DNA of 64,000 nt from Escherichia phage vB_EcoM_VR26: the sequence record NC_028957.1. One strand, written 5' to 3'. Position 1 is the first letter of the stretch, and each line of letters starts with the position of its first letter. A program made the translations under genes and the position numbers. The notes below the pieces were generated by a model, which worked only from the letters and a program-made list of their open reading frames with translations, had not been told where the DNA came from and ran no database searches. Below are positions 20,151 through 64,000 of this stretch, in pieces.

Positions 20151-20453
20151 TTATGCCAACTCATAATTGTGCATTGTCAGACAACGAATTTTTCCAGTAG
20201 TTGGGTGCATAACAGTCACACTAATTGTGCAATCATCACACACGTTAACAAAAGGTTCCGCGATAACAAATACTTCACCGCCTGCCAACAGATACTCACG
20301 AAGGCTTGAGCGAACCGCTGAAGGGTGAACATCGCTTTTGAGCTTTATTAATTTACCGGTTTGAATGCCAGATGCGATAAGAGCAGCACAGGTTTCATCA
20401 CGGCGAGCGAATTGTCCAAAGTAGTAACGATTCATGTCGGTTTGATTAAACAT
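20151..20453 (-). CDS. hypothetical protein
   Basis: 100 aa; AGGAAA SD; promoter cassette upstream. Confidence 0.45.
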   Translation of the reverse strand: MFNQTDMNRYYFGQFARRDETCAALIASGIQTGKLIKLKSDVHPSAVRSSLREYLLAGGEVFVIAEPFVNVCDDCTISVTVMHPTTGKIRCLTMHNYELA

Positions 20454-51502: not shown

Positions 51503-51528
51503 AGCGGAATACTAGTTAGTATCTGTAT

Positions 51529-51804
51529 TTATAATCTTTTAAACTTGAAACAATATATTGCAAATAAATCAGAAAAATGTCTATCAACCCATATTCTTTG
51601 CACTGGACTAGTAACAGTCAGCATATAATGTGCTTTTTGTAAATTTATTCCATTTTTATTCGGGCATTCTTTATTAACAGAATGGTACGTGCTTGCTACT
51701 ATTTCAATTTCCCTTTCATATCTCTCGCTATCTGTTTGCGTGGGGATAAATGCAATTCCAGCAATAACAAAAATAGAGATATAAGTCCAAATCTTATATA
51801 TCAT
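51529..51804 (-). CDS. small membrane protein
   Basis: 91 aa with N-terminal hydrophobic segment. Confidence 0.4.
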   Translation of the reverse strand: MIYKIWTYISIFVIAGIAFIPTQTDSERYEREIEIVASTYHSVNKECPNKNGINLQKAHYMLTVTSPVQRIWVDRHFSDLFAIYCFKFKRL

Positions 51805-51811
51805 AAGGACC

Positions 51812-52384
51812 TCAGCTTGTCAATTCGAGCCAATGTTTCCTGCATAAAGATACGTACGATTCATTCCCACCGACTAACACTTGCTCGCCGTCCTTTACAG
51901 CAGCACCGTCGATTACTCGAGCGGTCATGGTTGCTTTCCGGCCGCAATGGCAGACGCCCTTTAATTCAACCAGTTTATCCGAAATAGCCAGAAGTCTGGC
52001 TGAACCGGGAAATAATTGACCCCGAAAATCTGTTCTTAACCCGTAACACATAACGGGGATATTGTAATTATCAACCACTCGTGCTAACTGGTCAATTTGC
52101 TCTGGTAACAAAAATTGAGCTTCATCAACCAGGACACAATGGATATCCTTTTGAGACTCGGCCCATTTATAGAATTCAAACAGGTTCATGTCGGCCGTTA
52201 CCAGGTTTGCTTCCTGGCTAATACCAATACGTGATTTAATTTCAGATTCCGAGTCCCGATTATCAATAACAGGTTTTAGCAAAAGCACACTCATTCCACG
52301 CTCTTTATAGGAATAAGCTGCAGTCAGCAATGAAGCTGTTTTGCCTGCATTCATTGCTGCGTAATGATAAATTAAACTCGCCAT
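51812..52384 (-). CDS. tk: thymidine kinase
   Basis: 190 aa; P-loop AAMNAGKT and C-terminal zinc ribbon CHCG...C..H. Confidence 0.9.
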   Translation of the reverse strand: MASLIYHYAAMNAGKTASLLTAAYSYKERGMSVLLLKPVIDNRDSESEIKSRIGISQEANLVTADMNLFEFYKWAESQKDIHCVLVDEAQFLLPEQIDQLARVVDNYNIPVMCYGLRTDFRGQLFPGSARLLAISDKLVELKGVCHCGRKATMTARVIDGAAVKDGEQVLVGGNESYVSLCRKHWLELTS

Positions 52385-52393
52385 ATCACCTTC

Positions 52394-52597
52394 TTAAAGA
52401 GTATTCACATAAGCAATTAATTCGTTTTCTTTCTCATCAAACTGTTCAGCGATTTTTTCGTAATCTTCGGCGCTCACAGGACCCCATTCATCGTATGATT
52501 GCATTCCAGAATTCTCTTCTAGAAGCTCATGGATAAGCTCAAACAATTTATCTTTTTGTTCTTTACTTAGGCTCATAACCATTGCACCTTTAAACAA
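52394..52597 (-). CDS. hypothetical acidic small protein
   Basis: 67-aa ORF. Confidence 0.4.
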   Translation of the reverse strand: MFKGAMVMSLSKEQKDKLFELIHELLEENSGMQSYDEWGPVSAEDYEKIAEQFDEKENELIAYVNTL

Positions 52598-52791
52598 TAT
52601 TCATCTACGTGTTGGACACGTTTGTTTTTGTCAATAAAAGTATATTCAACATACTCGCCGATATACCACTTATCTACATTGTGCGGACTTTTTATAGGAC
52701 ACTTGGTTGCCCGTGTTTCGGACCAGTGTCGAATAATTGTAGCTTTGTTTTTAGGGTCAAATGGGTGTGGATAATGTGCTTTCATAATCAA
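52573..52791 (-). CDS. hypothetical small protein
   Basis: 72-aa ORF. Confidence 0.4.
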   Translation of the reverse strand: MIMKAHYPHPFDPKNKATIIRHWSETRATKCPIKSPHNVDKWYIGEYVEYTFIDKNKRVQHVDEYCLKVQWL

Positions 52792-53236
52792 CTACCACCA
52801 AATCAATATCAGGAGTAAACATATCAATTAACCGGGAAACCTTATCCCAATCACCACCTGCAATACCACATCCAATCCTGGGAATATAAATCACAGGCTT
52901 GAACAAAAGGGATTCTGCTTGTCGATTTAATTCTATCATACAATTTACTAAAGCGCCATAATCCAGATTTGGACCCGGTTCATACTGGGTATAAAGGTTA
53001 TAGCACATACCAAATCCAGTTGGCTTATGTTTAAAAACGATAGACATATCACCGAGTTTTTCTCGGGAACCGTATTCAGTTGATGTTTTATCCATTTCTA
53101 AAATTTTTGGGTAAGCCTTTGCCAGTTGGCCAGCAACGCCTGACCCCATTGTATGGAAACAATTACAGCCATGAGCTATGATGTTTCCTTCAAGAAAGAG
53201 GGCGACAATATCGCCCTTAATATAGTTAACAATCAT
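52757..53236 (-). CDS. macro-domain protein (ADP-ribose binding/processing fold)
   Basis: 159 aa; glycine-rich motifs HGCNCFHTMGSGVAGQL and IGCGIAGGDW typical of macro domains. Confidence 0.55.
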   Translation of the reverse strand: MIVNYIKGDIVALFLEGNIIAHGCNCFHTMGSGVAGQLAKAYPKILEMDKTSTEYGSREKLGDMSIVFKHKPTGFGMCYNLYTQYEPGPNLDYGALVNCMIELNRQAESLLFKPVIYIPRIGCGIAGGDWDKVSRLIDMFTPDIDLVVVDYESTLSTPI

Positions 53237-53592
53237 TTAGAGTTCAATCCTCTGTTATAGGAATCGACTAACCTGTCAACCATACTGGTGCAGGCCGCTT
53301 TATATTTGGCACTCGACAGAATACAATCCATTTCAAATAGTTTCTTTTCATATTTGTTGGATAAAATACTCTTTTTCATAAGAGTGTGTTCAACATCATT
53401 TTGACCGTCTTTATATGCAGCAGTGAGTTTGGCACTGAACTGGATTACACAATCCACATTGCTTGATGCGCAATAATCTTTGGCCGTCCTCGTTGCATAT
53501 TCTATGATGCTATTATTATCATCGCTCTGTACTGAAGCTATTCCTCCCGTGCTGAATACTAACCCTATGGCTAAAGTTATGACTCTTACCAT
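53233..53592 (-). CDS. putative secreted protein
   Basis: 119 aa; N-terminal signal-like segment. Confidence 0.4.
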   Translation of the reverse strand: MVRVITLAIGLVFSTGGIASVQSDDNNSIIEYATRTAKDYCASSNVDCVIQFSAKLTAAYKDGQNDVEHTLMKKSILSNKYEKKLFEMDCILSSAKYKAACTSMVDRLVDSYNRGLNSK

Positions 53593-54135
53593 TTAATCCA
53601 CCGTTTTTAATAGGCCTCGTGATTTTAAGTAGTTAGCTTTTTCTAGGACTTGCGAAGCATACGTATTTCCAGCTTTCACATTCCACCCTGCGTTATATGA
53701 TGATAGTGTTTTTCTTATGTCCCCCTTGTGGATGTTCAACCAGTATGAAAGCTCAATATAAGCCCAGCGTGCACTGTTCTCTCTCTTGCTTATCATCTTG
53801 ATTATTTCTTTATCTGTCATTGTCCACCCAACCTGTTTTACGCGCTCGCGCACGGTTGGAAGATAATTTTGGAATATACCATATGCATGATGCTTATCTT
53901 TATTTAATCCTGTATTAACGCCAGCAGATGATTCCTGCCAGGTTAAACCAGCCATGATATATCCCAAACCATTATGTTGGTGCGGATTTTCTTTGTACTT
54001 ACCATTTTTCTGGAACTGTTCTCCAAACGCATAAGCATATTGGAGGTTCTCCATTTGTTCATTACTGAAAGTAGGCTCTACGCTATGGGCAGACATACTA
54101 ACTGTCAATAGTAAAGTGGCTATTACTTTTTTCAT
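53593..54135 (-). CDS. periplasmic lytic transglycosylase-like protein
   Basis: 180 aa; signal peptide; ES...GIFQ...YNAG motif order typical of Slt-type domains. Confidence 0.55.
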   Translation of the reverse strand: MKKVIATLLLTVSMSAHSVEPTFSNEQMENLQYAYAFGEQFQKNGKYKENPHQHNGLGYIMAGLTWQESSAGVNTGLNKDKHHAYGIFQNYLPTVRERVKQVGWTMTDKEIIKMISKRENSARWAYIELSYWLNIHKGDIRKTLSSYNAGWNVKAGNTYASQVLEKANYLKSRGLLKTVD

Positions 54136-54145
54136 GAATTCCCCA

Positions 54146-54604
54146 TTAGATATAAATCACTTTTGTGCTAATTTTTCCTTCCAGACGATTAGAGTTAACA
54201 AACGCCATACGACAACACATGGTTGGAGACTTCCCAGGAAGAGCTGGGTTAACTGTCATTCCTAACCATAAGTTCTTGTCTGTGATTTCCAGACGAAGTG
54301 GACGGTAGTTCACATTCGGGTCAATTTGTGCTTCAACTTCCGGGAGTGGTTTCATCTCCAGGAATTCAACAATTTCTTTTACATGTGGTGTGATTTTTCC
54401 AAACAAGTCAAAAACATATTGTTCGTCAATTTCACGTTGGATTGCACGGTCCAACAGGTGTGGACTGTACTTAATGAAGAATGCTTCAAGGCCTGCTTCT
54501 TTACAAGCCTTGTTGATAGCATTATTAATTTTGAGGAACTCCGTTTCAAAAATACGACGAAGTTTATTGCGGCGAATGTAAACACTTGAATCGATAGTAG
54601 TCAT
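54146..54604 (-). CDS. regB: endoribonuclease RegB
   Basis: True ATG at 54602-54604 (MTTIDSSVYIRRNKLRR) with AAGGAGA SD; collinear with recalled T4 RegB. Confidence 0.85.
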   Translation of the reverse strand: MTTIDSSVYIRRNKLRRIFETEFLKINNAINKACKEAGLEAFFIKYSPHLLDRAIQREIDEQYVFDLFGKITPHVKEIVEFLEMKPLPEVEAQIDPNVNYRPLRLEITDKNLWLGMTVNPALPGKSPTMCCRMAFVNSNRLEGKISTKVIYI

Positions 54605-54631
54605 GATTATCTCCTTTTGTTTGATGGGATA

Positions 54632-54660
54632 ATCATAACTCATTTCAACCTGCTTGTACA
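54632..54660 (-). promoter_or_regulatory. early promoter upstream of regB
   Basis: TGTACA 54655-54660, 17-nt spacer, TATGAT -10; leader with AAGGAGA SD. Confidence 0.45.
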
Positions 54661-55008
54661 CTATTCTTTAAAACGAATTAGCTTATTTAATGACTGTGAG
54701 ACTTCAGCACGAACAGCGTGTAAATTCTTAAGCTGTTCAAGGCGTTGCTCGTAGTAAGCAATTTCATCTTCTTCAAGACAGTCGTTTGAATCTTCTTTAA
54801 GATAGTTCCCGTAGTCCTGAAAGGCCTTACGAATAACTTCCTGGAAATCGTCTAGACTTTGAATTTTTGGCTGTTTCGGTGTGAATCCAAACGGATTGGA
54901 ATCATTTATGCGGCGATGAGAAGCGGTTGATAACTCATAACCAAAACCAGAATTAATCTGCGCCATTAGTATTTTTCCTCGGATCGAAATACTGCACGAC
55001 ATGCCCAC
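54661..55008 (-). CDS. hypothetical protein
   Basis: 115-aa ORF. Confidence 0.4.
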
Positions 55009-55286
55009 ATGCTGGCTTCTTTTAGATGTTGCTTAGCATACTTAAGAGCCTGCACTGCATCCATATCTTCTTTGGTTTGTTGCTCTGTTTCATTTTCTTT
55101 CAAGATATATGCTTCTTCAATCAGAGCATCAAACATCAATCCAAGACGGACTTCTGCATCTTTAATAGCGTTCACTTTACCGATTTTATCGTCGGTGTGC
55201 GGCTTGTAACCTTTGATATCTTCAATCATTTCACTTCCTCGCCAGTTGCGATATCGTATTCTACCAAACGAAGGCCATCGGTCCAA
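54966..55286 (-). CDS. hypothetical protein
   Basis: 106-aa ORF; start uncertain. Confidence 0.35.
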
Positions 55287-55459
55287 CCCTGAACGGAGAT
55301 ATAAGTGCTAGGATAAACCAGTTCTTTACCGTTCCACTGACCACCGTCCCAAACTTCCAGAAAGTCTTGTTCACCCGGACCATTAAACCATTCAACGAAT
55401 CTTTTCAAGGCTGCATCAGAGCCTTCAATCGTCAGTTTAGACATATTTTTTCCAGTCAC
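55226..55459 (-). CDS. hypothetical small protein
   Basis: 77-aa ORF. Confidence 0.35.
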   Translation of the reverse strand: MTGKNMSKLTIEGSDAALKRFVEWFNGPGEQDFLEVWDGGQWNGKELVYPSTYISVQGWTDGLRLVEYDIATGEEVK

Positions 55460-55733
55460 TAATTAATCGCACATCCTGGTCATACGTCAGGAGGCTACGA
55501 GTTATAATACCCTTACATGGTCCAGAAATAAATTCCAGAGTAAAGTAAGGAACCAACTTCATCAAGCGAATACTCGGAGCAGTGCAACGAAATCTGGACC
55601 CAATAAAAGGTCCAGACAAAAACACGTACTCAAAGAAATTTGCTTTATTAAAGATTTCAAAATTCTTTACGAAATCTTCAGACCTAACCTTTGGAATAAA
55701 ATAGATTTGGTCAAAAAGCTCTTCATGAGTCAT
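55437..55733 (-). CDS. hypothetical protein
   Basis: 98-aa ORF. Confidence 0.4.
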   Translation of the reverse strand: MTHEELFDQIYFIPKVRSEDFVKNFEIFNKANFFEYVFLSGPFIGSRFRCTAPSIRLMKLVPYFTLEFISGPCKGIITRSLLTYDQDVRLISDWKKYV

Positions 55734-56260
55734 TATTGCATTCCTATCACAAAGAATAGCGGTAAAGGCTTAGCGCCTTGACACATAAATTTATTCATCA
55801 TTACCTGATAAGCTTCATAGAACTTATCCATCGCTGGAAGTCGCATGGGCTCTTCGATAATAATCAATAATCGAGTAACAGATAATCCACGATACTTATG
55901 GAAGTTATCTTCGTCTAAAAATGAACGAACGGTATCATAGGCGATAAATCCAGGGCGTTCTACTTGAAGATGTGGTTGTGCCTTAGAAACCTGTTTTATT
56001 ACATTACAGATTTCTCGTGAGCGATGTGAAGAACTCGACATAACAATCACATCATTACCCTTAGAAACCCAATCTGCTGCAAACTGCGCAAGGGCACTTG
56101 TTTTACCTGTTTGACGACCACCGTCAAGTCGAAGAGTACCAAACTCTTGCATTCTTGAAGCAGGTTCATACCAGGTGTATTGGTCTGAATCTAAGCGTTC
56201 AATGGCGCGTTCAGCGAAGGCGTGCATTAAGGTTAGATAAATTGGAGTTAAAAATTTCAT
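55733..56260 (-). CDS. P-loop NTPase-like protein
   Basis: 175 aa; Walker A-like GGRQTGKTSAL; hydrophobic IIIEEP resembling Walker B. Confidence 0.45.
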   Translation of the reverse strand: MKFLTPIYLTLMHAFAERAIERLDSDQYTWYEPASRMQEFGTLRLDGGRQTGKTSALAQFAADWVSKGNDVIVMSSSSHRSREICNVIKQVSKAQPHLQVERPGFIAYDTVRSFLDEDNFHKYRGLSVTRLLIIIEEPMRLPAMDKFYEAYQVMMNKFMCQGAKPLPLFFVIGMQ

Positions 56261-56421
56261 AGTTGTCTCTTAGTTGTAGGGCCATTCCTTGGCACATTAA
56301 TTCGTCCATGTATCCGAATGTAAACCCCTTACCGCACTCGGGCTCGACCTTATTACAGGTAGGGAAAGGTCCATCACTCAGAGGACACGACGTTCATGAG
56401 GAGAGGGTCGGTTTGCCTTTA

Positions 56422-56724
56422 TTAAAAAGAACCAGAGCCTTTAATTGTGTTCTGGCGACCTTTATTTTCTACTTCAGAATGGTCGATTTCGTATGCTTGT
56501 GCTACGCCAAAGGCCTTTTTAACTTTAGCTAAAGAACCTTTAGATGTAACAATATTAAAAGTATTGCCTTTGGTAAAATCAACCAAATCCACTTGCACCC
56601 CTTGTTTACCGAGGCTTGCTACAATAGCATCAACATATTGTTGGTCTAAATTGCCTTGAACCCCAATTTGAAATGCTTTAGGAACTTTAGCAGATTCAGT
56701 AATAAATTCTTGATATGTTTTCAT
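56422..56724 (-). CDS. capsid internal protein (IP family)
   Basis: 100 aa; N-terminal capsid-targeting sequence MKTYQEFITES. Confidence 0.7.
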   Translation of the reverse strand: MKTYQEFITESAKVPKAFQIGVQGNLDQQYVDAIVASLGKQGVQVDLVDFTKGNTFNIVTSKGSLAKVKKAFGVAQAYEIDHSEVENKGRQNTIKGSGSF

Positions 56725-56737
56725 ATTGTTTCTTTAA

Positions 56738-57052
56738 TTAAGCTTTAGGGAAATCGCGCAAAAACGCATCATAAAGTTTATTACCAATGCGACGGAATGC
56801 TTTTGCCGCATGAACGTTATCTGGGTTTGCAATTTTAATCTGCATTACATGACTACCAGCCCATGATTTAGCTTCGTCATAATAACCTTTAATTTCTTTA
56901 ATAGTCTTGCGTTTTCCACCAGGACCATCGACAGTAATTTTCCACGAACCAGTGCTTGTTTCACTTGGTGGGGTTAACTGTTCAATCCAGACATAACCAC
57001 CTTCAACACGTTGTTGAGTAGATTCAGTAATAAATTCTTGATAAGTTTTCAT
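56738..57052 (-). CDS. capsid internal protein (IP family)
   Basis: Starts at internal ATG 57050-57052 giving MKTYQEFITES; track N-terminal 13 residues are leader. Confidence 0.7.
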   Translation of the reverse strand: MKTYQEFITESTQQRVEGGYVWIEQLTPPSETSTGSWKITVDGPGGKRKTIKEIKGYYDEAKSWAGSHVMQIKIANPDNVHAAKAFRRIGNKLYDAFLRDFPKA

Positions 57053-57100
57053 TTTATATTCCATTGTTTGGTTGATAAAATCATTATACAACCTTTTTAG

Positions 57101-57517
57101 TTAAGCGTACACAGCTTTCCCATAGTATTTGTACCAGGTAGGCTTTTGAGAAATTTTCTCATTCAGTCTGGATTGACTGATTTCAATTGACCAGATTGAT
57201 GGTTGATAATCATTCTTCCATTCATCAGGAATATCATTTAAATCTTGGGTAGAAATATCTTTTATATTAAACCCTCGCTTTAAACATTCAGCAATAAGTT
57301 CTTGATGACGGTTTTTAAGGAACAAAAGCTTATCATAAAAGAAGGTGACATGACCAGTTCCTAAAAGAAAAGATGATGGGATTTTAAAGTCAGACACCTT
57401 TTTACCATTTTGCACATGCTTACGAACAGCACCAAACACGCGAGGAAGCTCACGATATTCAGCCATAAGGTGTTGGTCGGCAAGTTCAGATACCAGGGTT
57501 AAATTAATGCGAGTCAT
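57101..57517 (-). CDS. denV: endonuclease V (pyrimidine-dimer DNA glycosylase)
   Basis: 138 aa, near-identical to recalled T4 DenV. Confidence 0.92.
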
Positions 57518-57572
57518 GTTTGTTCTCCGTAGTTGATAGGGTCATTATAACCCTATCGTTTGGAGATGTAAA

Positions 57573-58061
57573 CTAATAAGCGTCAAAAGTTCCAGTACGG
57601 AAAGTTTCAATAACTCGTTTGGCCCGGTTTGGAGTCTGGACTTTATACCATCTTGAGTCAGCCAGTTCCTTAGCAGCAGCTTCCCATGATTTAGCCTTGA
57701 GCAATCGCAGCCCCTTAGGAAAACCAGCAACACCAGCTACACCCATTTGGAATACCATATTAATGAGTGCACAACGACGAACTTCATCCAGTACATCATA
57801 AACAGGCTTTAAGACAGGATGTTTCAAGATTCCGGCTTTAGCTTTTTCGACCGAACGGTTAAACAATGTTTCGGCTTCGTGCTGGGTTATACGACCATTA
57901 CAGATACGACCCATGAGCTTGTCGAGCTCAGCACGAGCAACATCTTTCGATGGGTTCTTAGTTATCAATTGCCCGATACCAATGGTCCAATAACCTTCGG
58001 TATCTTTATACAAATCCAACTTACAACCTTCATCTATGCGTAACATTTCGAATATATTCAT
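57573..58061 (-). CDS. e: lysozyme (endolysin)
   Basis: 162 aa; [12 protein letters not shown], catalytic E11/D20/T26 context and [12 protein letters not shown] match recalled T4 lysozyme. Confidence 0.92.
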
Positions 58062-58085
58062 AATACCCCCTTATATAGGGGTATT
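58062..58085 (-). promoter_or_regulatory. RNA hairpin sequestering the lysozyme (e) ribosome-binding site
   Basis: 8-bp stem aatacccc/ggggtatt with 8-nt loop ending exactly at the e ATG; the SD-like AAGGGGG lies within the stem. Confidence 0.5.
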
Positions 58086-58087
58086 TA

Positions 58088-58549
58088 TTATCCGAAAATT
58101 TGAGTCAAAACCTTGTACATCGATTTACCCATTACGTATTGCCATTGACTCGGTTTAATCAGAGCAAATGCATCAAACTCTGGGACCAAACTACCATCCG
58201 GGAATGTATGATATGCGGAGCATTTACTATGTCTGAATTGCTCATGCTCGACCGGGACCGTGTACAAAAACAGGTGAAGGTTTTTGTTATCTGAATAACG
58301 GAACTCGCCTAGGTCTTTTAAGAATGCCGGGTCATACTGGGTAAAGCCTGTTTCTTCTTCGCATTCACGTATAGCCGCTTCAATCGGGGATTCACCGGCT
58401 TCAACATGACCCTTAGGGATATCCCATTTATGTGCAGGCATACCCGGTTTGCGAGAACCAGTCACGCGACCCATGAATAGCTCTTTATCTTCAGTCATGA
58501 AAATAATACCAGCAGATAATTCTTTCACCACGTTTTTCTTACTCATCAT
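58088..58549 (-). CDS. nudE: Nudix hydrolase
   Basis: Nudix box GHVEAGESPIEAAIRECEEETG; likely start MMSKKN at 58547-58549 (153 aa). Confidence 0.8.
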   Translation of the reverse strand: MMSKKNVVKELSAGIIFMTEDKELFMGRVTGSRKPGMPAHKWDIPKGHVEAGESPIEAAIRECEEETGFTQYDPAFLKDLGEFRYSDNKNLHLFLYTVPVEHEQFRHSKCSAYHTFPDGSLVPEFDAFALIKPSQWQYVMGKSMYKVLTQIFG

Positions 58550-58775
58550 CACGTTCCCACGATTTTTTAAAGATTTCAGCCATAATAATTTCAATACGTG
58601 TTTCTGTTGATGGCGATTCACTACTAGAAGTTTGAACTCTGTATTCAGAAATCGGGCGGAACAAGTCCAGGTCAATTTCTAAATCATCTTTGATTTCAAC
58701 TTCGGGCGTACCTTTATCATAGGAATACAGGTAAGAATCACATGACTCTGATTTAATATAAATTGCAATACTCAT
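58539..58775 (-). CDS. hypothetical acidic small protein
   Basis: 78-aa ORF. Confidence 0.4.
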   Translation of the reverse strand: MSIAIYIKSESCDSYLYSYDKGTPEVEIKDDLEIDLDLFRPISEYRVQTSSSESPSTETRIEIIMAEIFKKSWERDDE

Positions 58776-59353
58776 TTACGGCATTCCTCAATAAAAGAGT
58801 TTAATGTATTTTTCTTTGTAACATCATCATATACCTTTTTAACTTTAGAAATACGAAAAGGTACTTCAATAACAGAGGTCCATAAAAATGATGCGATAAG
58901 TCCTGAGATAGCCGCAGACATAGCTGACGCGAATACAGAAATAGGCAGGTCATTATCTGTTGTCAGGAAAAAACCCAGGATTGGAAAAAACAGTATCCCC
59001 ATCCAAACATAGAACCTGGAGCACACCAACTTGTCATATTCATCGCTCCATGTACGAAAACCATATTTTTCACTATAACAAATCAATGGGTCAGGTGTTT
59101 GTTCTTTATGCGGTTCTGGTTGCCAACCTTTAACGATGTGCTTCATTTTATATTCCTCAATTAAAAGCTCTTTCATATGCCGGTTACAATGCGACCAATC
59201 AACGTTTTCCACCTTGATTCCTTCATCACCATCATCAAGGTTTGCCCAATATCTTTTGGTAATCATAAATTCATCTCTTGGAACTGGAATACCTGCACAT
59301 CCTTGTGGACCTTTCATATCACCCATGCAACCGGGTTCATACATCATTACCAT
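58772..59353 (-). CDS. membrane protein with C-terminal FIEECRK tail
   Basis: 193 aa; hydrophobic segments; C-terminal tail resembles 63255..63608 and 63595..63978. Confidence 0.45.
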   Translation of the reverse strand: MVMMYEPGCMGDMKGPQGCAGIPVPRDEFMITKRYWANLDDGDEGIKVENVDWSHCNRHMKELLIEEYKMKHIVKGWQPEPHKEQTPDPLICYSEKYGFRTWSDEYDKLVCSRFYVWMGILFFPILGFFLTTDNDLPISVFASAMSAAISGLIASFLWTSVIEVPFRISKVKKVYDDVTKKNTLNSFIEECRK

Positions 59354-60033
59354 CCCTCCATAGGGAATTCTAGATATACTTGGGCATTAACGCGGATTTC
59401 ATTGGTAATATTTTTAACACGGTCAGTGTTACGAGATACACGACCAAACCAACGCCAGCCATTGCGCACTGTCTGGGAACCAGTATGCCAGGTATGACAA
59501 TTAAACTGCAGGAGTGTGCGGTCAGGAGCTTCCCATTGCTCTAATTCACCTGATTCAATTTTAGTCAGAACTTCTTTATGCCATTGGCGATAAATCAATT
59601 CACCTTCCGGGATTTCACTAAAGGTAGCTTCGCCTGTAGCAAAATGGGTAGGACACACATCAGCGTTAACAAGACCAAGAATGTGTTCAGACATATAGCG
59701 AGGATTGTCATAATCTGGTTGACCCGCAGTAATAAAATGTTGTCCAGTTGGAATGGGTGGACGCGGAACATCATCATGATGATAGCCAGGGATAGCTGGA
59801 TACCAACCCGGCATTAACATATGCACACGTGAATCAAACACAACATGTTGATTAGTCCAATCAATTGGGAGATTGGCAATAAAGCTACGAGTGATTGGGC
59901 CACCATTATCCCAAGCAAAACTCAAATCACAGTTAAAGAACATTGGTTCATTTTTGATTTGGTCATTTTGTACGTTATGTGCAAAACCACCTACTGCACG
60001 AGCTTGACTATTAAAAGTTTTAGGACCGTTCAT
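59347..60033 (-). CDS. hypothetical protein
   Basis: 228 aa, His/Trp-rich; no recognised motif. Confidence 0.45.
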   Translation of the reverse strand: MNGPKTFNSQARAVGGFAHNVQNDQIKNEPMFFNCDLSFAWDNGGPITRSFIANLPIDWTNQHVVFDSRVHMLMPGWYPAIPGYHHDDVPRPPIPTGQHFITAGQPDYDNPRYMSEHILGLVNADVCPTHFATGEATFSEIPEGELIYRQWHKEVLTKIESGELEQWEAPDRTLLQFNCHTWHTGSQTVRNGWRWFGRVSRNTDRVKNITNEIRVNAQVYLEFPMEGW

Positions 60034-60092
60034 AATATTTTCCTCATTGATTGTGGGACCATTATGTCATAGCCCCATTTGGTTGTACACAC

Positions 60093-60743
60093 TTATTTTT
60101 GTCTATTATAATATTTCAATTCAGCGGCGCGACGTCTTTCCATTGCTTCGTCACGAGAATCACCATAGTAAAGTTGGATTTCTTTATGATTAACAGTAAT
60201 ATATGATATCCATTTACCTCTGTCTTTTCTAAACTTGACACCTGTAATTGGACCAGGTGAATCTTTTCGGGTATCCTGGTCAAATGACTGTATTGATGAT
60301 GAAGCCCATTCGCAAGTTTCTTTACTGTATAGCTTACATGAATTTATCCGATTAATGCTTGTACCTGCTGGACGAATACCCATATCTTCAACAAAATTCA
60401 AATAACCAGTTTTTCCCTTTGGTAGCCACCTATCACATATTTGTACACCAGCGCCACCATACTGCTTCCAACGATGATGGTTAGGATTTGTACACCTTTC
60501 AATCATGGCAGCATACGATGAATATGTAGGTTTGTCAGAAATAAATGAATAATGATATTTCTGACAGCCGCATGATTTGGTTTTACCTGATTTTATACGA
60601 GCGGCGGCTGTGACAAACTCTTTACCACAATGACAAATACAATTCCATTTAGTAGAAACTCCAGCGGTTTTATATGCTACCGAAACAAATTTGATTCCAT
60701 TAATAATTTTACCAGTCAAATCTTCTAATGGTCTTCCCATCAT
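60093..60743 (-). CDS. zinc-finger/AP2-like DNA-binding protein (homing-endonuclease-like)
   Basis: 216 aa; N-terminal CICHCG...CGC; central NPNHHRWKQYGGAGVQICDRW; C-terminal AP2-like segment. Confidence 0.45.
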   Translation of the reverse strand: MMGRPLEDLTGKIINGIKFVSVAYKTAGVSTKWNCICHCGKEFVTAAARIKSGKTKSCGCQKYHYSFISDKPTYSSYAAMIERCTNPNHHRWKQYGGAGVQICDRWLPKGKTGYLNFVEDMGIRPAGTSINRINSCKLYSKETCEWASSSIQSFDQDTRKDSPGPITGVKFRKDRGKWISYITVNHKEIQLYYGDSRDEAMERRRAAELKYYNRQK

Positions 60744-61705
60744 TCATCCTTTTTGAATGGTTTAATTAAATGCTGGTTAGCCTTAAAACGTTTAATATAA
60801 TCGTCATGACCTAAAGCATTATACATACTTATAATTTTACCATAATTTTCATATGCGAAGGTGCGGAACCATCCAGAAGTAATGGAGGTGCAGACTTTTT
60901 CCAGAGCCATATGGAAGCTATGGCTTGCAGGGATAATAAAATCATTAGGAACCTGTGAACGCTCCAGAGCGAGTACACATGCTTCTTCATAAACCCCTGC
61001 CAGTTTAATAACATCAGGGAGTGCTTCAAATTTTTCGCGTGAGGTCATGACTTCTGAATCATCCTTCATATAGAACTTATATGCGGGCTTATCAGCAAGC
61101 GCCACGGCCTCGTGGATGGAGTCATGGTCAAGGGTATAGATTGTATCATTAAAGAAAGTTTTCTTGCCCACGTCTAGTTTAGGGTGGCTATATGACAGTG
61201 TTTCTGCCTGGCGTTGTTGCATAATTTTCTGCAGTTCATCATTAAGAACAACACCCTTATTGCGAAGGTAATTAATATGACTCATGGTCTTCAGGAAGAA
61301 TGGATTGTTCTTCAGGTAACGATGAGATAATTTAATTGCCAGACAAATATCAGGAGTCGCCCAGTAAAAACCTGTAAGACGGTCCTTTTTAATATGATTT
61401 TCAGCATATTTCAGGAGACGATAACTTGAGGTGAAATCTTCGTCTTGAAGCTCGCCAGTAATTTCTCGTACGTTGGTCAGGGCACGGACAATATAAGCTT
61501 CAAAATAGGTTTCTTTGCCATTGTACATACATTTAAAAGCTTGGACATCAGGGTTATCCACAGGAACATGAGCACCGAACATACGTGCTTTAAAGTGGTT
61601 CCATGAGCCTTGGTCGGCAATGAAATCCCAATCAGAGTTTTCAATTTTCTGACTTTCAATCAGACCAGCGTTATGTAATGCACGAGAACCAATAACTAAC
61701 ATCAT
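60740..61705 (-). CDS. hypothetical protein
   Basis: 321-aa ORF; no recognised motif. Confidence 0.45.
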   Translation of the reverse strand: MMLVIGSRALHNAGLIESQKIENSDWDFIADQGSWNHFKARMFGAHVPVDNPDVQAFKCMYNGKETYFEAYIVRALTNVREITGELQDEDFTSSYRLLKYAENHIKKDRLTGFYWATPDICLAIKLSHRYLKNNPFFLKTMSHINYLRNKGVVLNDELQKIMQQRQAETLSYSHPKLDVGKKTFFNDTIYTLDHDSIHEAVALADKPAYKFYMKDDSEVMTSREKFEALPDVIKLAGVYEEACVLALERSQVPNDFIIPASHSFHMALEKVCTSITSGWFRTFAYENYGKIISMYNALGHDDYIKRFKANQHLIKPFKKDE

Positions 61706-61989
61706 AATATTTTCCTCATTAGTAAAGACGAGTTACTTCATATTTTCCAAGTGCCGATTTTTTCGCTTCAATTCGTGAGGCAGCAAGATTGGCGGCCTCT
61801 AGTGAAGAAAATTGAACCACTTGAGAAGTATTCTGTCTTACTCCACCTTGCGGGTGAGTGACAAAAACAATAAGAACATTATACATAATATTTTCCTCAT
61901 TAGTTGACGAGATAATGATACTACGTTTCTTTAGGCTTGTACACTAAATTTCTGCACATAAGTCCTCCTATCACATCCTTGTGATAATT

Positions 61990-62223
61990 TTAGCAGCTAC
62001 TCGGATACCAGATTTTACCATCGGCACGAGCAACGAAGGTACGACCAGCTTCTTCACCATAACAAGAGCTGTTCAACCAGTCTTCAAGACGGACTTCGCC
62101 GTCATAATCATCAAGCTCAACACCAAAATCTTGAGCAGAAGCCATATCTTTTACTTTCTTATACAGTGCAGCCAGTTCAAGGGCGGCTTTTTCTAATTCA
62201 GCATGTTCAACAGCAGTAGTCAT
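61990..62223 (-). CDS. small protein of the C-terminal SS-C paralog family (copy 5)
   Basis: 77 aa ending ...KIWYPSSC; GGTGA SD. Confidence 0.55.
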   Translation of the reverse strand: MTTAVEHAELEKAALELAALYKKVKDMASAQDFGVELDDYDGEVRLEDWLNSSCYGEEAGRTFVARADGKIWYPSSC

Positions 62224-62232
62224 TTTATCACC

Positions 62233-62460
62233 TTAGCAAGACATAGAGGAGTTAAACCAGAAACCTTTACCATCTGGGATACCGTAATCACCACGAATCC
62301 AGTCATACTCTTCGTATTCTGGACAACCCGCGGGAATATATCGTTGAAGACTGTCAGCATATACATGAAAGTATTCACCAGTTTTATCGGCCAGTTGTTC
62401 ACCTTCACAGATTAGTGCACGGATTTGGTCTTCAATTTCTTTAACAGTTTTAGCAGTCAT
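62233..62460 (-). CDS. small protein of the C-terminal SS-C paralog family (copy 4)
   Basis: 75 aa ending ...GFWFNSSMSC. Confidence 0.55.
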   Translation of the reverse strand: MTAKTVKEIEDQIRALICEGEQLADKTGEYFHVYADSLQRYIPAGCPEYEEYDWIRGDYGIPDGKGFWFNSSMSC

Positions 62461-62469
62461 TTTATTTCC

Positions 62470-62667
62470 TTAGCATTCGTAAGAGGAGGACACCCAAGAG
62501 GTACCACTAATAGTAATACAGCCATTATAAAGCGTGATATGTCGTTCTAGGTCACGCTGACCATCAATATAGATATCAGCTTCTTCACGTTCTTCTTTAC
62601 AAATCTGGATAACGTTTTCAATAGCTGCCGCGGCAGTACGGATTGCACAATCTAATTCACGAGACAT
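62470..62667 (-). CDS. small protein of the C-terminal SS-C paralog family (copy 3)
   Basis: 65 aa ending ...SWVSSSYEC; GGAAA SD. Confidence 0.55.
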   Translation of the reverse strand: MSRELDCAIRTAAAAIENVIQICKEEREEADIYIDGQRDLERHITLYNGCITISGTSWVSSSYEC

Positions 62668-62676
62668 AATAGTTCC

Positions 62677-62958
62677 TTAACATTCAGAAGAGGAGGACAC
62701 CCAACCGCCTTTTTCCAGGCTGGTAGTGTAATCATGTTGGTTTACAATAGCCCATTCAGGATGACCATGTTCTTCCCAATGAGCAAGGTCAGCTTTCAGG
62801 GCGCCAGGAGAATAATAGTCACCGCCCATACCGCGAGCAGGGTATATATTAAAATGAGTCTCATATTTGTCTGCAATTTCCTCGGCACGACGAATAGCTT
62901 TATGGATGTCATTTACTGCGTTAGCCAGTTCTTTATTTTTACGGTAATCATTCATCAT
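62677..62958 (-). CDS. small protein of the C-terminal SS-C paralog family (copy 2)
   Basis: 93 aa ending ...GGWVSSSSEC. Confidence 0.55.
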   Translation of the reverse strand: MMNDYRKNKELANAVNDIHKAIRRAEEIADKYETHFNIYPARGMGGDYYSPGALKADLAHWEEHGHPEWAIVNQHDYTTSLEKGGWVSSSSEC

Positions 62959-62967
62959 AGCGTTTCC

Positions 62968-63258
62968 TTAGCACATTGCCGAAGAGGAGACCCAAGCACC
63001 AACTGTAACGACACCGTTTTCAACTTCACCGCCGCTGTTTTCAATTTCATCTTTAAACCACTGGGAGCATTCATAACCGACAGGATAATATGTACGGCCC
63101 GAACCATAATCACCGGTACCAAATTGGATACCATATTCATCTGCGATTTCTTCACAGTGTTTTTCAATTTCAGAGGTCTTATTTAGAAGAGAATAGATAG
63201 CTTTTTCTGCAGATTTCTCATCATAATACTTGGGGATAGCAATTTCAATTTTATTCAT
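62968..63258 (-). CDS. small protein of the C-terminal SS-C paralog family (copy 1)
   Basis: 96 aa ending ...GAWVSSSAMC; start overlaps upstream stop (ATGA). Confidence 0.55.
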   Translation of the reverse strand: MNKIEIAIPKYYDEKSAEKAIYSLLNKTSEIEKHCEEIADEYGIQFGTGDYGSGRTYYPVGYECSQWFKDEIENSGGEVENGVVTVGAWVSSSAMC

Positions 63259-63608
63259 GATTTACATTCCTTAATAAAGGTTTCAAGGTCATTACGTTTT
63301 GTTTTGTCTAGGAACTTATTATACTCAGCCATTGCTGAAGCGTATCTCTTCCGACTAGGAGCATTCACGGCATTTGTGTGGCAAATATCATACACAACAG
63401 GGATAAAATAAGACACAACAGCCGGAGCGATTATCATAAAGAAACCCATCTCAATGGGCATCACTCCCTCGATTGCAGCCATAACCGTGGTCATTACCAG
63501 ACCAACCAAGCCGCCAAGCATGGCGGTGACAATCCCTAATAATAAATTGGCACCAATATCATATTCAGCCAATTGATAAACATGTGATGCAAGACTAGGC
63601 CGTTCCAT
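63255..63608 (-). CDS. two-pass membrane protein with C-terminal FIKECKS tail
   Basis: ATG at 63606-63608 (MERPSLASH) with AAGGAGG SD; two hydrophobic segments. Confidence 0.5.
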   Translation of the reverse strand: MERPSLASHVYQLAEYDIGANLLLGIVTAMLGGLVGLVMTTVMAAIEGVMPIEMGFFMIIAPAVVSYFIPVVYDICHTNAVNAPSRKRYASAMAEYNKFLDKTKRNDLETFIKECKS

Positions 63609-63978
63609 TACGAACCTCCTTAATAAATTCTTCGGCACATTTAATTTTGTGCTCTTCTTGCAGGGAAACACATTTTTGTTCCCACTCTTTAACTCGTCCA
63701 CGATATCCTTTATTCATATGATTTTGATGCCACACGTTTATCAATAACATGCTCAGGACTGTAATAAAAGGTGCTGCAATTATTAGTGACCAGGCGACTC
63801 CAACACTAATGATATTCATATCCCCACAAAGCACCATCATTATAACCCCAACGATGCACATGGACAGAGCTCCAAACGCAGGCATAAGGTCTTTATCAAT
63901 CTTGTCTGCATATACAAATTTTTCTGGTTTACTTGGCAGATATAGCGTTCGCATTTTGAACCTCTTTAGCGTATTCAC
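63595..63978 (-). CDS. two-pass membrane protein with C-terminal FIKEV tail (paralog)
   Basis: 127-aa ORF; start near window edge uncertain; same architecture as 63255..63608. Confidence 0.45.
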   Translation of the reverse strand: MNTLKRFKMRTLYLPSKPEKFVYADKIDKDLMPAFGALSMCIVGVIMMVLCGDMNIISVGVAWSLIIAAPFITVLSMLLINVWHQNHMNKGYRGRVKEWEQKCVSLQEEHKIKCAEEFIKEVRNGTA

Positions 63979-64000
63979 GACATTCAGTAATAAAACGATT

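Follow-up and report, generated by a model that had tools for sequence, protein, structure and literature searches.

Roughly 1000 T4-like phages of enterobacteria keep an early gene for a catalytically intact-looking copy of the TerL ATPase core, and this copy is able to trigger a host immune receptor. What could such a copy be for? The question arises again in Escherichia phage vB_EcoM_VR26 (NC_028957.1), of which we analyzed a stretch of 64,000 nucleotides, referred to here as the window. An earlier note, made from the letters of this DNA alone, had drawn attention to ORF 55733-56260, which lies in the interval between regB and the genes for internal proteins and whose product carries a Walker A-like GGRQTGKTSAL and a hydrophobic stretch ending in acidic residues, LLIIIEEP. 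It had suggested that such a protein could be a kinase or an ATPase regulator of host processes. The translation reads exactly as quoted there, with the two motifs at residues 47-54 and 131-138, and the position in the interval is borne out by the ORFs of the window and by synteny with phages JS10 and T4.

The product matches PHROG 1488, a family listed with 'unknown function', from end to end (its residues 1-175 cover positions 1-177 of the 177 in the profile, E 7.1e-69), and shares 38.5% identity with T4 Vs.8 over residues 3-175. Megablast combined with an annotation look-up placed the window in a T4-like phage of the Dhakavirus type, with VR5, VR7 and JS10 as relatives, and in the JS10 annotation the same frame is named vs.8. 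Mapping of the neighboring genes by tblastn demonstrated that the gene order around vs.8 matches the annotations of both JS10 and T4. The gene also has the position typical of the Vs.8 family: it is found in the early region, between the denV and internal-protein genes on one side and regB on the other, directly upstream of vs.7 and overlapping it. On balance, we judge that ORF 55733-56260 is probably the Dhakavirus ortholog of vs.8 and encodes a non-essential early accessory protein that consists solely of the nucleotide-binding core of a T4-type TerL ATPase.

The gene as such, which the earlier note did not recognize as T4 vs.8, is already known. It has carried its name since the annotation of the T4 genome, and both the terminase-ATPase likeness of its product and the activation of Avs2 were published in 2026. 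What is new here is the arginine at the finger position, the exact point of truncation, the coupling and co-occurrence of vs.8 and vs.7, the probable misannotation of the T4 N-terminus and the apparent frameshift in T2. Another vs.8 in a T4-like genome is routine by itself; three details sharpen the puzzle: a near-invariant arginine occupies the trans-finger position, the lid and any second domain are missing, and vs.8 is tightly coupled to vs.7.

Table 1. The vs.8 gene, its conserved elements and the genes next to it, in window coordinates
Feature	Position	Strand	Details
vs.3	54661-54966		present in T4, absent from JS10
vs.4 (Acb2 anti-CBASS sponge)	54966-55229		Pfam PF24729 Acb2_Tad1_hairpin, E 6e-18
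vs.5-like	55226-55444		
vs.7	55437-55733	-	98 aa; PHROG 2049, E 1e-41
vs.8 CDS	55733-56260	-	175 aa + stop, ATG start; stand-alone ATPase core of the terminase type (ASCE, P-loop)
C-terminal strand and tip, P167-LFFVIGM-Q175	55736-55762	-	last core strand; strand 168-172 in model
Walker B strand L131-L-I-I-I-E136, catalytic glutamate E137, P138	55847-55870	-	strand 131-136 in model
R124-G125, aligned to gp17 R245-G246	55886-55891	-	alpha2-beta3 position of the P74-26 TerL trans arginine finger
Walker A/P-loop G47-G-R-Q-T-G-K-T54, including terminase-type arginine R49	56099-56122	-	decoded from sequence
N-terminal conserved helix, residues 1-23 (MKyLTPxYLTLMHAFxDRA)	56192-56260	-	helix 5-23 in model

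Motifs, fold and terminase relationship

The conservation of Vs.8 was evaluated in an alignment of 43 homologs with identities of 38-93%. Outside the N-terminal helix, D46, G48, R49, G52, K53, G125, E137, P167, F170, G173 and Q175 are invariant throughout, and Q50 and R124 are conserved in at least 90% of the sequences. Such invariance across 43 homologs places the Walker motifs far beyond chance. The P-loop follows the Walker A pattern GxxxxGK[ST] as G47-GRQTGK-T54, in which G48, G52 and K53 never vary, and the second motif has the makeup of a Walker B strand with a catalytic glutamate, position 136 being D or E and E137 being invariant. Among close relatives, vs.8 shares 95.1% of its nucleotides and 98.9% of its residues with phage VR5, and 91.3% and 94.9%, respectively, with JS10. 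Most nucleotide changes are therefore synonymous and point to coding constraint, and by this measure vs.8 is a real gene under purifying selection.

The two ends of the protein are conserved as well. In the N-terminal helix, M12 and F15 are invariant and L4, T5, Y8, L9, L11, A14 and A19 are conserved in at least 90% of the homologs. This helix lies outside the region that can be aligned confidently to terminases and has no confident counterpart there, and it is a candidate surface for a partner or for oligomerization. At the other end, three residues follow the last core strand before the chain stops, and its terminal G-x-Q is invariant. Going by strand order only, the C-terminal strand would sit at the position of motif III of helicases and terminases; hhalign gave no confident alignment of the terminal GMQ with the (S/T)TPxG coupling motif of TerL.

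Structure prediction, which the earlier note had named as the way to refute a P-loop fold, returned a confident one. An AlphaFold2 model built from the 43-sequence alignment (mean pLDDT 89.3, pTM 0.88) consists of two N-terminal helices followed by five strands that alternate with helices, with the P-loop placed after strand 42-45. This corresponds to the parallel alpha/beta core of the ASCE class in its RecA-like form. Taken by itself, the model places Vs.8 as 'ASCE, RecA-like', with a small margin over helicases. A Foldseek search against the PDB gave weak and mixed matches that included noise such as HGPRT, and we did not use it for the terminase case. Sequence searches of PDB chains with Vs.8 and with the family profile found nothing significant (best E 0.7-1.2), and PADLOC gave no meaningful match for Vs.8.

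Profile comparisons were more telling. The earlier note had proposed HHpred, and a profile-profile comparison with hhalign linked the Vs.8 family to the T4-type terminases. Against gp17 alone (610 aa, the gp17 sequence used being 100% identical to T4 records), the family profile aligned with an E-value of 1e-5. Against a TerL profile of seven T4-type terminases, from T4, VR25, RB43, 44RR, S-PM2, Rhizobium LG08 and Vibrio D531, it reached 96.5% probability, an E-value of 7.3e-10 and a score of 67.6, with Vs.8 residues 48-155 covering gp17 161-274. In the control comparisons, none of the other ORFs of the window with at least 100 codons scored above 33 with this profile, the P-loop proteins resembling gp41, UvsX, Dda and Tk included. 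An additional hhalign match, to ORF 20151-20453 (E 4e-5 over 50 columns), was rejected as spurious, its GIQTGKL not being a Walker A motif, and it advises caution with hhalign E-values obtained for single sequences. The Pfam family Terminase_6N (PF03237) is matched by 15 of the 43 homologs at E-values of 0.01 or below (best 2.4e-6); VR26 Vs.8 itself stays below its gathering threshold, with 13.7 versus 22 bits.

Within the alignment, the residues that characterize the TerL core are in register, including the arginine of the P-loop and an Arg-Gly pair ahead of Walker B. GGRQTGKT pairs with LSRQLGKT of gp17 (S161-T167), whose P-loop arginine is R162, and IIIEE pairs with IYIDE (M251-IYID255-E256), in which D255 precedes the catalytic E256. 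R124-G125, whose arginine lies 13 residues ahead of E137, pairs with gp17 R245-G246, and this RG is invariant in all seven T4-type TerL sequences. In this context, Xu et al. identified R139 as the trans arginine finger of the P74-26 TerL and also found an arginine for T4 (PMC5727402); from this statement we take gp17 R245 to be the arginine meant. R124 of Vs.8 may thus act as an arginine finger, as judged from its aligned position. At the second candidate finger position, between alpha3 and beta4 (R158 in D6E, R146 in phi29), Vs.8 has no conserved arginine.

The alignment also defines what Vs.8 lacks. The gp17 N-terminal part of about 120 residues, the lid subdomain and the nuclease domain have no equivalent, and the adenine-binding DYQ motif could not be aligned with confidence. 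Because the chain ends at residue 175, without the lid and the RNase H-like nuclease domain, Vs.8 is not a terminase. The tandem of two RecA-like domains of SF1/SF2 helicases is likewise not found in it, and the sequence profiles favor terminases. Vs.8 is accordingly a paralog of the terminase ATPase, and neither a terminase nor a helicase nor a kinase. It is expected to bind Mg-ATP like the terminase ATPase core. Hydrolysis, if there is any, would take place only in an oligomer or together with a partner, because the monomer has neither a cis arginine finger nor a lid.

Locus, expression and distribution

The earlier note had placed the frame in a group of five small uncharacterized ORFs between 54661 and 56260. 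The group itself stands. The label does not, since its members are vs.3, vs.4, a vs.5-like gene, vs.7 and vs.8, and vs.4 is Acb2. More generally, the neighborhood of vs.8 holds counter-defense and takeover genes, namely Acb2/vs.4, the internal proteins and RegB.

Within this group, vs.8 is most closely tied to vs.7. The stop codon of vs.8 and the ATG of vs.7 share one base (TAATG, 55731-55735), and the two genes also adjoin each other in JS10 and T4. vs.7 was found in 932 phage records, whose breakdown by host is almost that of the 1016 records with vs.8: for vs.7 and vs.8, respectively, there are 548 and 549 Escherichia records, 79 and 79 from Shigella, 40 and 40 from Enterobacteria, 14 and 15 from Citrobacter, and 137 and 162 from Klebsiella. 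This co-occurrence suggests that vs.8 and vs.7 form a two-gene unit in the enterobacterial clade. The pairing appears limited to that clade, because distant homologs of Vs.8 (P0073, P0072) are found in other early-region contexts that lack vs.7. For Vs.7, four close homologs were retrieved, and its AlphaFold2 model, with a pLDDT of 45.7, is unusable.

Expression data are available for T4. There, vs.8 (P13318) and vs.7 (P13317) are early at both the RNA and the protein level (Wolfram-Schauerte et al., PMC9697503, supplementary tables), so that a terminase look-alike is present long before the late terminase. In VR26, the late promoter TATAAATA is absent from window positions 51534-64000 and none lies upstream of vs.8; the nearest copy is at 51526-51533. 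The 161-nt spacer upstream of the gene (56261-56421) contains no sigma-70 promoter or terminator according to our scans, has no Rfam match, folds with a z-score of -0.09 and shows no MotA box by eye. It includes a GTTTAC hexamer, without a convincing -10 element. Probably vs.8 is read from promoters further upstream.

According to tblastn, the records with vs.8 all belong to T4-like phages of enterobacteria. A T4-type TerL occurs in about 2600 records, compared with the 1016 for vs.8, which identifies vs.8 as an accessory gene. When the family HMM was run against 1.84 billion cluster representatives, it retrieved only 65 relatives, nearly all of them stand-alone proteins of 140-185 residues; one (P0105) is a genuine large terminase of 468 residues. 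In a distant branch of this wider family, the Walker A lysine is replaced by histidine and the catalytic glutamate is lost; the contigs of this branch are too short to reveal neighboring genes. Closer to T4, two observations concern individual copies. In T2, vs.8 is split by two frameshifts, as seen in one record, and this phage may serve as a natural control. The annotation of T4 Vs.8 contains about 37 extra N-terminal residues, the conserved start aligning with M38, and in the T2 copy a stop codon interrupts the region of this extension. Comparison of these reading frames suggests that the extension is probably not translated and that the T4 N-terminus is misannotated.

Avs2 recognition and the native role

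The only experimental handle on Vs.8 comes from the study of bacterial immunity. Evans et al. screened EcAvs2 with AlphaFold 3 against all proteins of T4 and PhiC120 (Nat Commun 2026, PMC13601566), the latter being a Mosigvirus. From this screen they picked vs.8, described as an uncharacterized ATPase-like activator of EcAvs2. Co-expression of vs.8 and EcAvs2 was toxic, and a model with an ipTM of 0.84 placed Vs.8 in the terminase pocket of EcAvs2 with a bridging ATP. The authors described sequence homology of Vs.8 to the T4 terminase's ATPase domain, including Walker A and B, together with high structural similarity, and retrieved T4-like terminases by PSI-BLAST from Vs.8. They put forward the idea that such activators are anti-defense proteins which Avs2 has learned to recognize (PMC13601566). 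Our profile comparisons reproduce the terminase relationship independently, for an ortholog of 38% identity from another genus. By orthology with the T4 and Mosigvirus proteins, the Dhakavirus Vs.8 may also be recognized by EcAvs2, although at 38.5% identity this property may not carry over.

By the mechanism published for the T4 and Mosigvirus proteins, extended here by orthology, Vs.8 would look like an ATP-loaded ATPase domain of a terminase and, because of this look, would fit the sensor pocket of EcAvs2 and switch the receptor on when both are co-expressed. Our preferred reading of the native role, tentative and unproven, is that of an early terminase mimic in conflict with host immunity that senses terminases. 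Such a mimic could occupy sensors that need both terminase domains, and Avs2 could be a receptor which has come to use the mimic as its trigger. Vs.7, overlapping and co-occurring, would be the likeliest partner. In its most specific form, in which Vs.8, probably with Vs.7, is a dedicated early counter-defense protein, this proposal is rather unlikely to hold in full: an ATP-loaded decoy of the TerL ATPase would be made minutes before the terminase and would saturate or mis-assemble Avs1, Avs3, Upx or other receptors that need the two-domain terminase, and EcAvs2 would have evolved to use the decoy as a trigger. If this were true, Vs.8 would be the first decoy made by a phage for a conserved pattern, structural or enzymatic, that is sensed by bacterial NLR-like sensors.

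Several observations favor a role as a mimic, namely the likeness to the surface that is sensed, the early timing, the accessory distribution and the neighborhood of Acb2 and internal proteins. Against it counts that the sole experimental phenotype is activation of defense, whereas a decoy should have the reverse effect. Moreover, the catalytic glutamate and Arg-Gly are strictly conserved, and this is at least as compatible with a working enzyme as with a passive mimic.

This working enzyme would be an oligomeric ATPase with an early job of its own, for example a ring or filament motor or an ATP switch on DNA, RNA or a host protein, maybe together with Vs.7, and its recognition by Avs2 would be an accident of shared terminase ancestry. 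We regard this as a possible account that nevertheless falls on the unlikely side. Lys53, Glu137 and Arg124, which are invariant or nearly so in the 43 homologs, are exactly those on which trans-activated hydrolysis in rings of terminases depends, and isolated TerL ATPase domains such as that of D6E form active pentamers in vitro (PMC5727402). The overlap of stop and start codons and the co-occurrence of vs.8 and vs.7 would suit a two-protein unit, and early expression beside denV and other nucleic-acid enzymes would suit an enzymatic task. However, Vs.8 has no lid subdomain, which in terminases couples hydrolysis to movement, no second RecA-like domain as in helicases and no confidently conserved adenine-binding Q motif, and a conserved basic channel loop was not identified in it. 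In the distant branch with histidine for lysine and no glutamate, hydrolysis does not seem essential to the role of the fold, and in T2 the gene looks dispensable.

Alternatively, Vs.8 might modulate the phage's own packaging motor, co-assembling with gp17 or binding gp16 or the portal and delaying or tuning packaging, or it might poison the motor of a co-infecting relative. The homology covers exactly the part of gp17 that contains the subunit interface and the active site, and the trans-finger position is kept. We nevertheless consider a packaging role quite improbable, given that T4 makes Vs.8 early but its terminase, portal and proheads late, and that many T4-like phages with the same terminase have no vs.8. 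In the domain organization of gp17, the regions that bind portal and gp16 are among those absent from Vs.8, and to our knowledge the vs.8 region has never been linked to a packaging phenotype.

Vs.8 could also be seen as what is left of a duplicated terminase gene that has lost its function and is decaying: it is a fragment of a larger protein family, is absent from many T4-like phages and appears frameshifted in one T2 record. Such decay is strongly disfavored by the reading frame, which about 1000 phage genomes keep at full length, down to 38% identity and with sharply conserved motifs, by the mostly synonymous changes among close relatives noted above for VR5, by the detection of the protein in T4-infected cells (PMC9697503) and by the compact and confident model. 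Of the two ideas in the earlier note, an ATPase regulator of host processes may still prove right. The other, a kinase, here taken as a small kinase for nucleotides or proteins within the kinase-GTPase class and backed only by the Walker A motif, the small size and weak sub-threshold matches to generic P-loop Pfam families, is effectively refuted, as Vs.8 lacks the hallmarks of P-loop kinases: its Walker B strand is followed by an invariant catalytic glutamate, its model contains no LID or substrate-binding insertion, and its hhalign score is 23.5 against the thymidine kinase of the window versus 67.6 against TerL.

Comparison with known systems

Set against SF1/SF2 helicases such as Mfd, RecD2, Dda and the DEAD-box proteins, Vs.8 is a single-domain protein without a second RecA-like domain, motifs IV-VI or a cis arginine finger. 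Ksap1 and Ksap2 also activate Avs2 and are small proteins other than terminases (Bechon et al. 2024, PMC11564622; PMC13601566), the former being a protein of 74 aa from siphoviruses (Dhillonvirus). They have no sequence relationship to Vs.8, which in contrast to both displays detectable terminase homology and intact Walker motifs.

With the ATPase domain of T4-type TerL (N-terminal subdomain I of gp17; Pfam Terminase_6N; PDB 2o0h), Vs.8 shares the ASCE fold, the RQxGKT motif, Walker B and the glutamate, as well as a conserved Arg-Gly that precedes the catalytic residue by 11-13 positions. Unlike gp17, it has 175 instead of 610 residues and is devoid of the N-terminal region with the DYQ motif, of the lid (NsubII), of the nuclease and of the portal-binding region. 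It ends on GMQ in place of the (S/T)TPxG coupling motif, and its expression is early and not late.

The closest known counterpart is T4 Vs.8 (UniProt P13318; PHROG 1488). The VR26 protein belongs to a Dhakavirus and not to a Tequatrovirus or Mosigvirus, and it differs from the T4 protein at more than 60% of its residues. Both proteins nevertheless have the Walker A and B motifs and the C-terminal FFVIGMQ end in common, and in both genomes the gene is embedded in the same order, from the internal-protein/denV side through vs.8, the overlapping vs.7 and vs.4 to regB.

Relatives and look-alikes of Vs.8

Among the proteins retrieved by the profile search with the Vs.8 family are small stand-alone relatives that form a distant branch (P0076, P0084, P0093, P0101, P0104, P0106 and P0107; loci L006-L008). 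The Arg-Gly motif is retained in these proteins, as is the aspartate of Walker B. Their Walker A reads RRSGH[ST], replacing RQxGK[ST], and the end of their Walker B reads hhhD-C/V/G-A, replacing hhhDEP. Judged from these motifs, the ATPase site of the branch looks degenerate. Within the window, an hhalign comparison of the Vs.8 profile with an ORF near the gp41-like helicase gene gave E 4e-5 over 50 columns, running through GIQTGKL and the hydrophobic strand that follows; this short match is probably spurious.

The large-terminase genes of Campylobacter phage CP20 (L015) and Escherichia phage AV101 (L016) carry a long insertion right behind the Walker A RQxGK, which in CP20 occupies the place of the expected lysine. 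The insertion looks like an intein, and because of it both sequences were excluded from the terminase profile.

Integrity and start of vs.8 in T2 and T4

In Escherichia phage T2 (PV648363.1; L017, locus 475-1118), vs.8 is split across three reading frames, so that two frameshifts have to be assumed. Apart from these breaks, the gene is 92-99% identical to T4 Vs.8. The disruption may stem from a faulty assembly, or T2 may carry vs.8 as a natural pseudogene; should the frameshifts be genuine, this phage amounts to a naturally occurring vs.8 knock-out. The T2 sequence also bears on the annotated start in T4. There, Vs.8 is annotated with 216-219 aa and begins about 37 codons 5' of the conserved MxxLTxxYL start (L002, OL964735.1, 3381-3491), and the T2 stretch matching this N-terminal extension contains a stop codon (L017, 475-585). 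The real start of T4 Vs.8 is probably M38, giving a protein of about 180 residues.

Genes and spacer flanking vs.8

Features of the window discussed in this part
Feature	Position	Strand	Size	Remarks
ORF	20151-20453	-	100 aa	PHROG 17014 (unknown function); just downstream of gp41-like helicase gene
vs.3-like ORF	54661-54966	-	101 aa	T4 vs.3, 71% identity; PHROG 2037
vs.4	54966-55229	-		Pfam PF24729 Acb2_Tad1_hairpin, E 6.2e-18
Spacer	56261-56421		161 nt	between internal-protein gene and vs.8
Small ORF	56422-56724	-		adjacent to next ORF
Small ORF	56738-57052	-		

The earlier note had described the five small ORFs ending with vs.8 as uncharacterised, a description that does not hold for vs.4. 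This gene, 65% identical to the T4 copy, is by its sequence homologous to Acb2, which blocks CBASS by acting as a sponge for cyclic oligonucleotides; a known anti-defence gene thus lies inside the cluster. In the neighbouring vs.3-like ORF, the PHROG match covers only the last 71 residues. The matching interval of the close relative JS10 lacks vs.3, and regB directly follows vs.4 there; this looks like a small accessory-gene indel between close relatives. The window has no counterpart of the T4 vs.6 (GrcA-like) gene.

On the other side of vs.8, both small ORFs start with MKTYQEFITES, the kind of leader that typically directs T4 internal proteins to the capsid. Their family matches differ: PHROG 2667 (internal head protein) for one, PHROG 3966 (unknown) for the other. 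The two ORFs, located between denV and vs.8, probably encode two distinct injected internal proteins. The spacer has a G+C content of 0.45-0.47, somewhat above the flanking DNA, and scanning it revealed neither a promoter nor a terminator; it gave no Rfam hit, and its folding energy is unremarkable. In T4, the equivalent gap from denV to vs.8 measures only about 27 nt, compared with 161 nt in the window.
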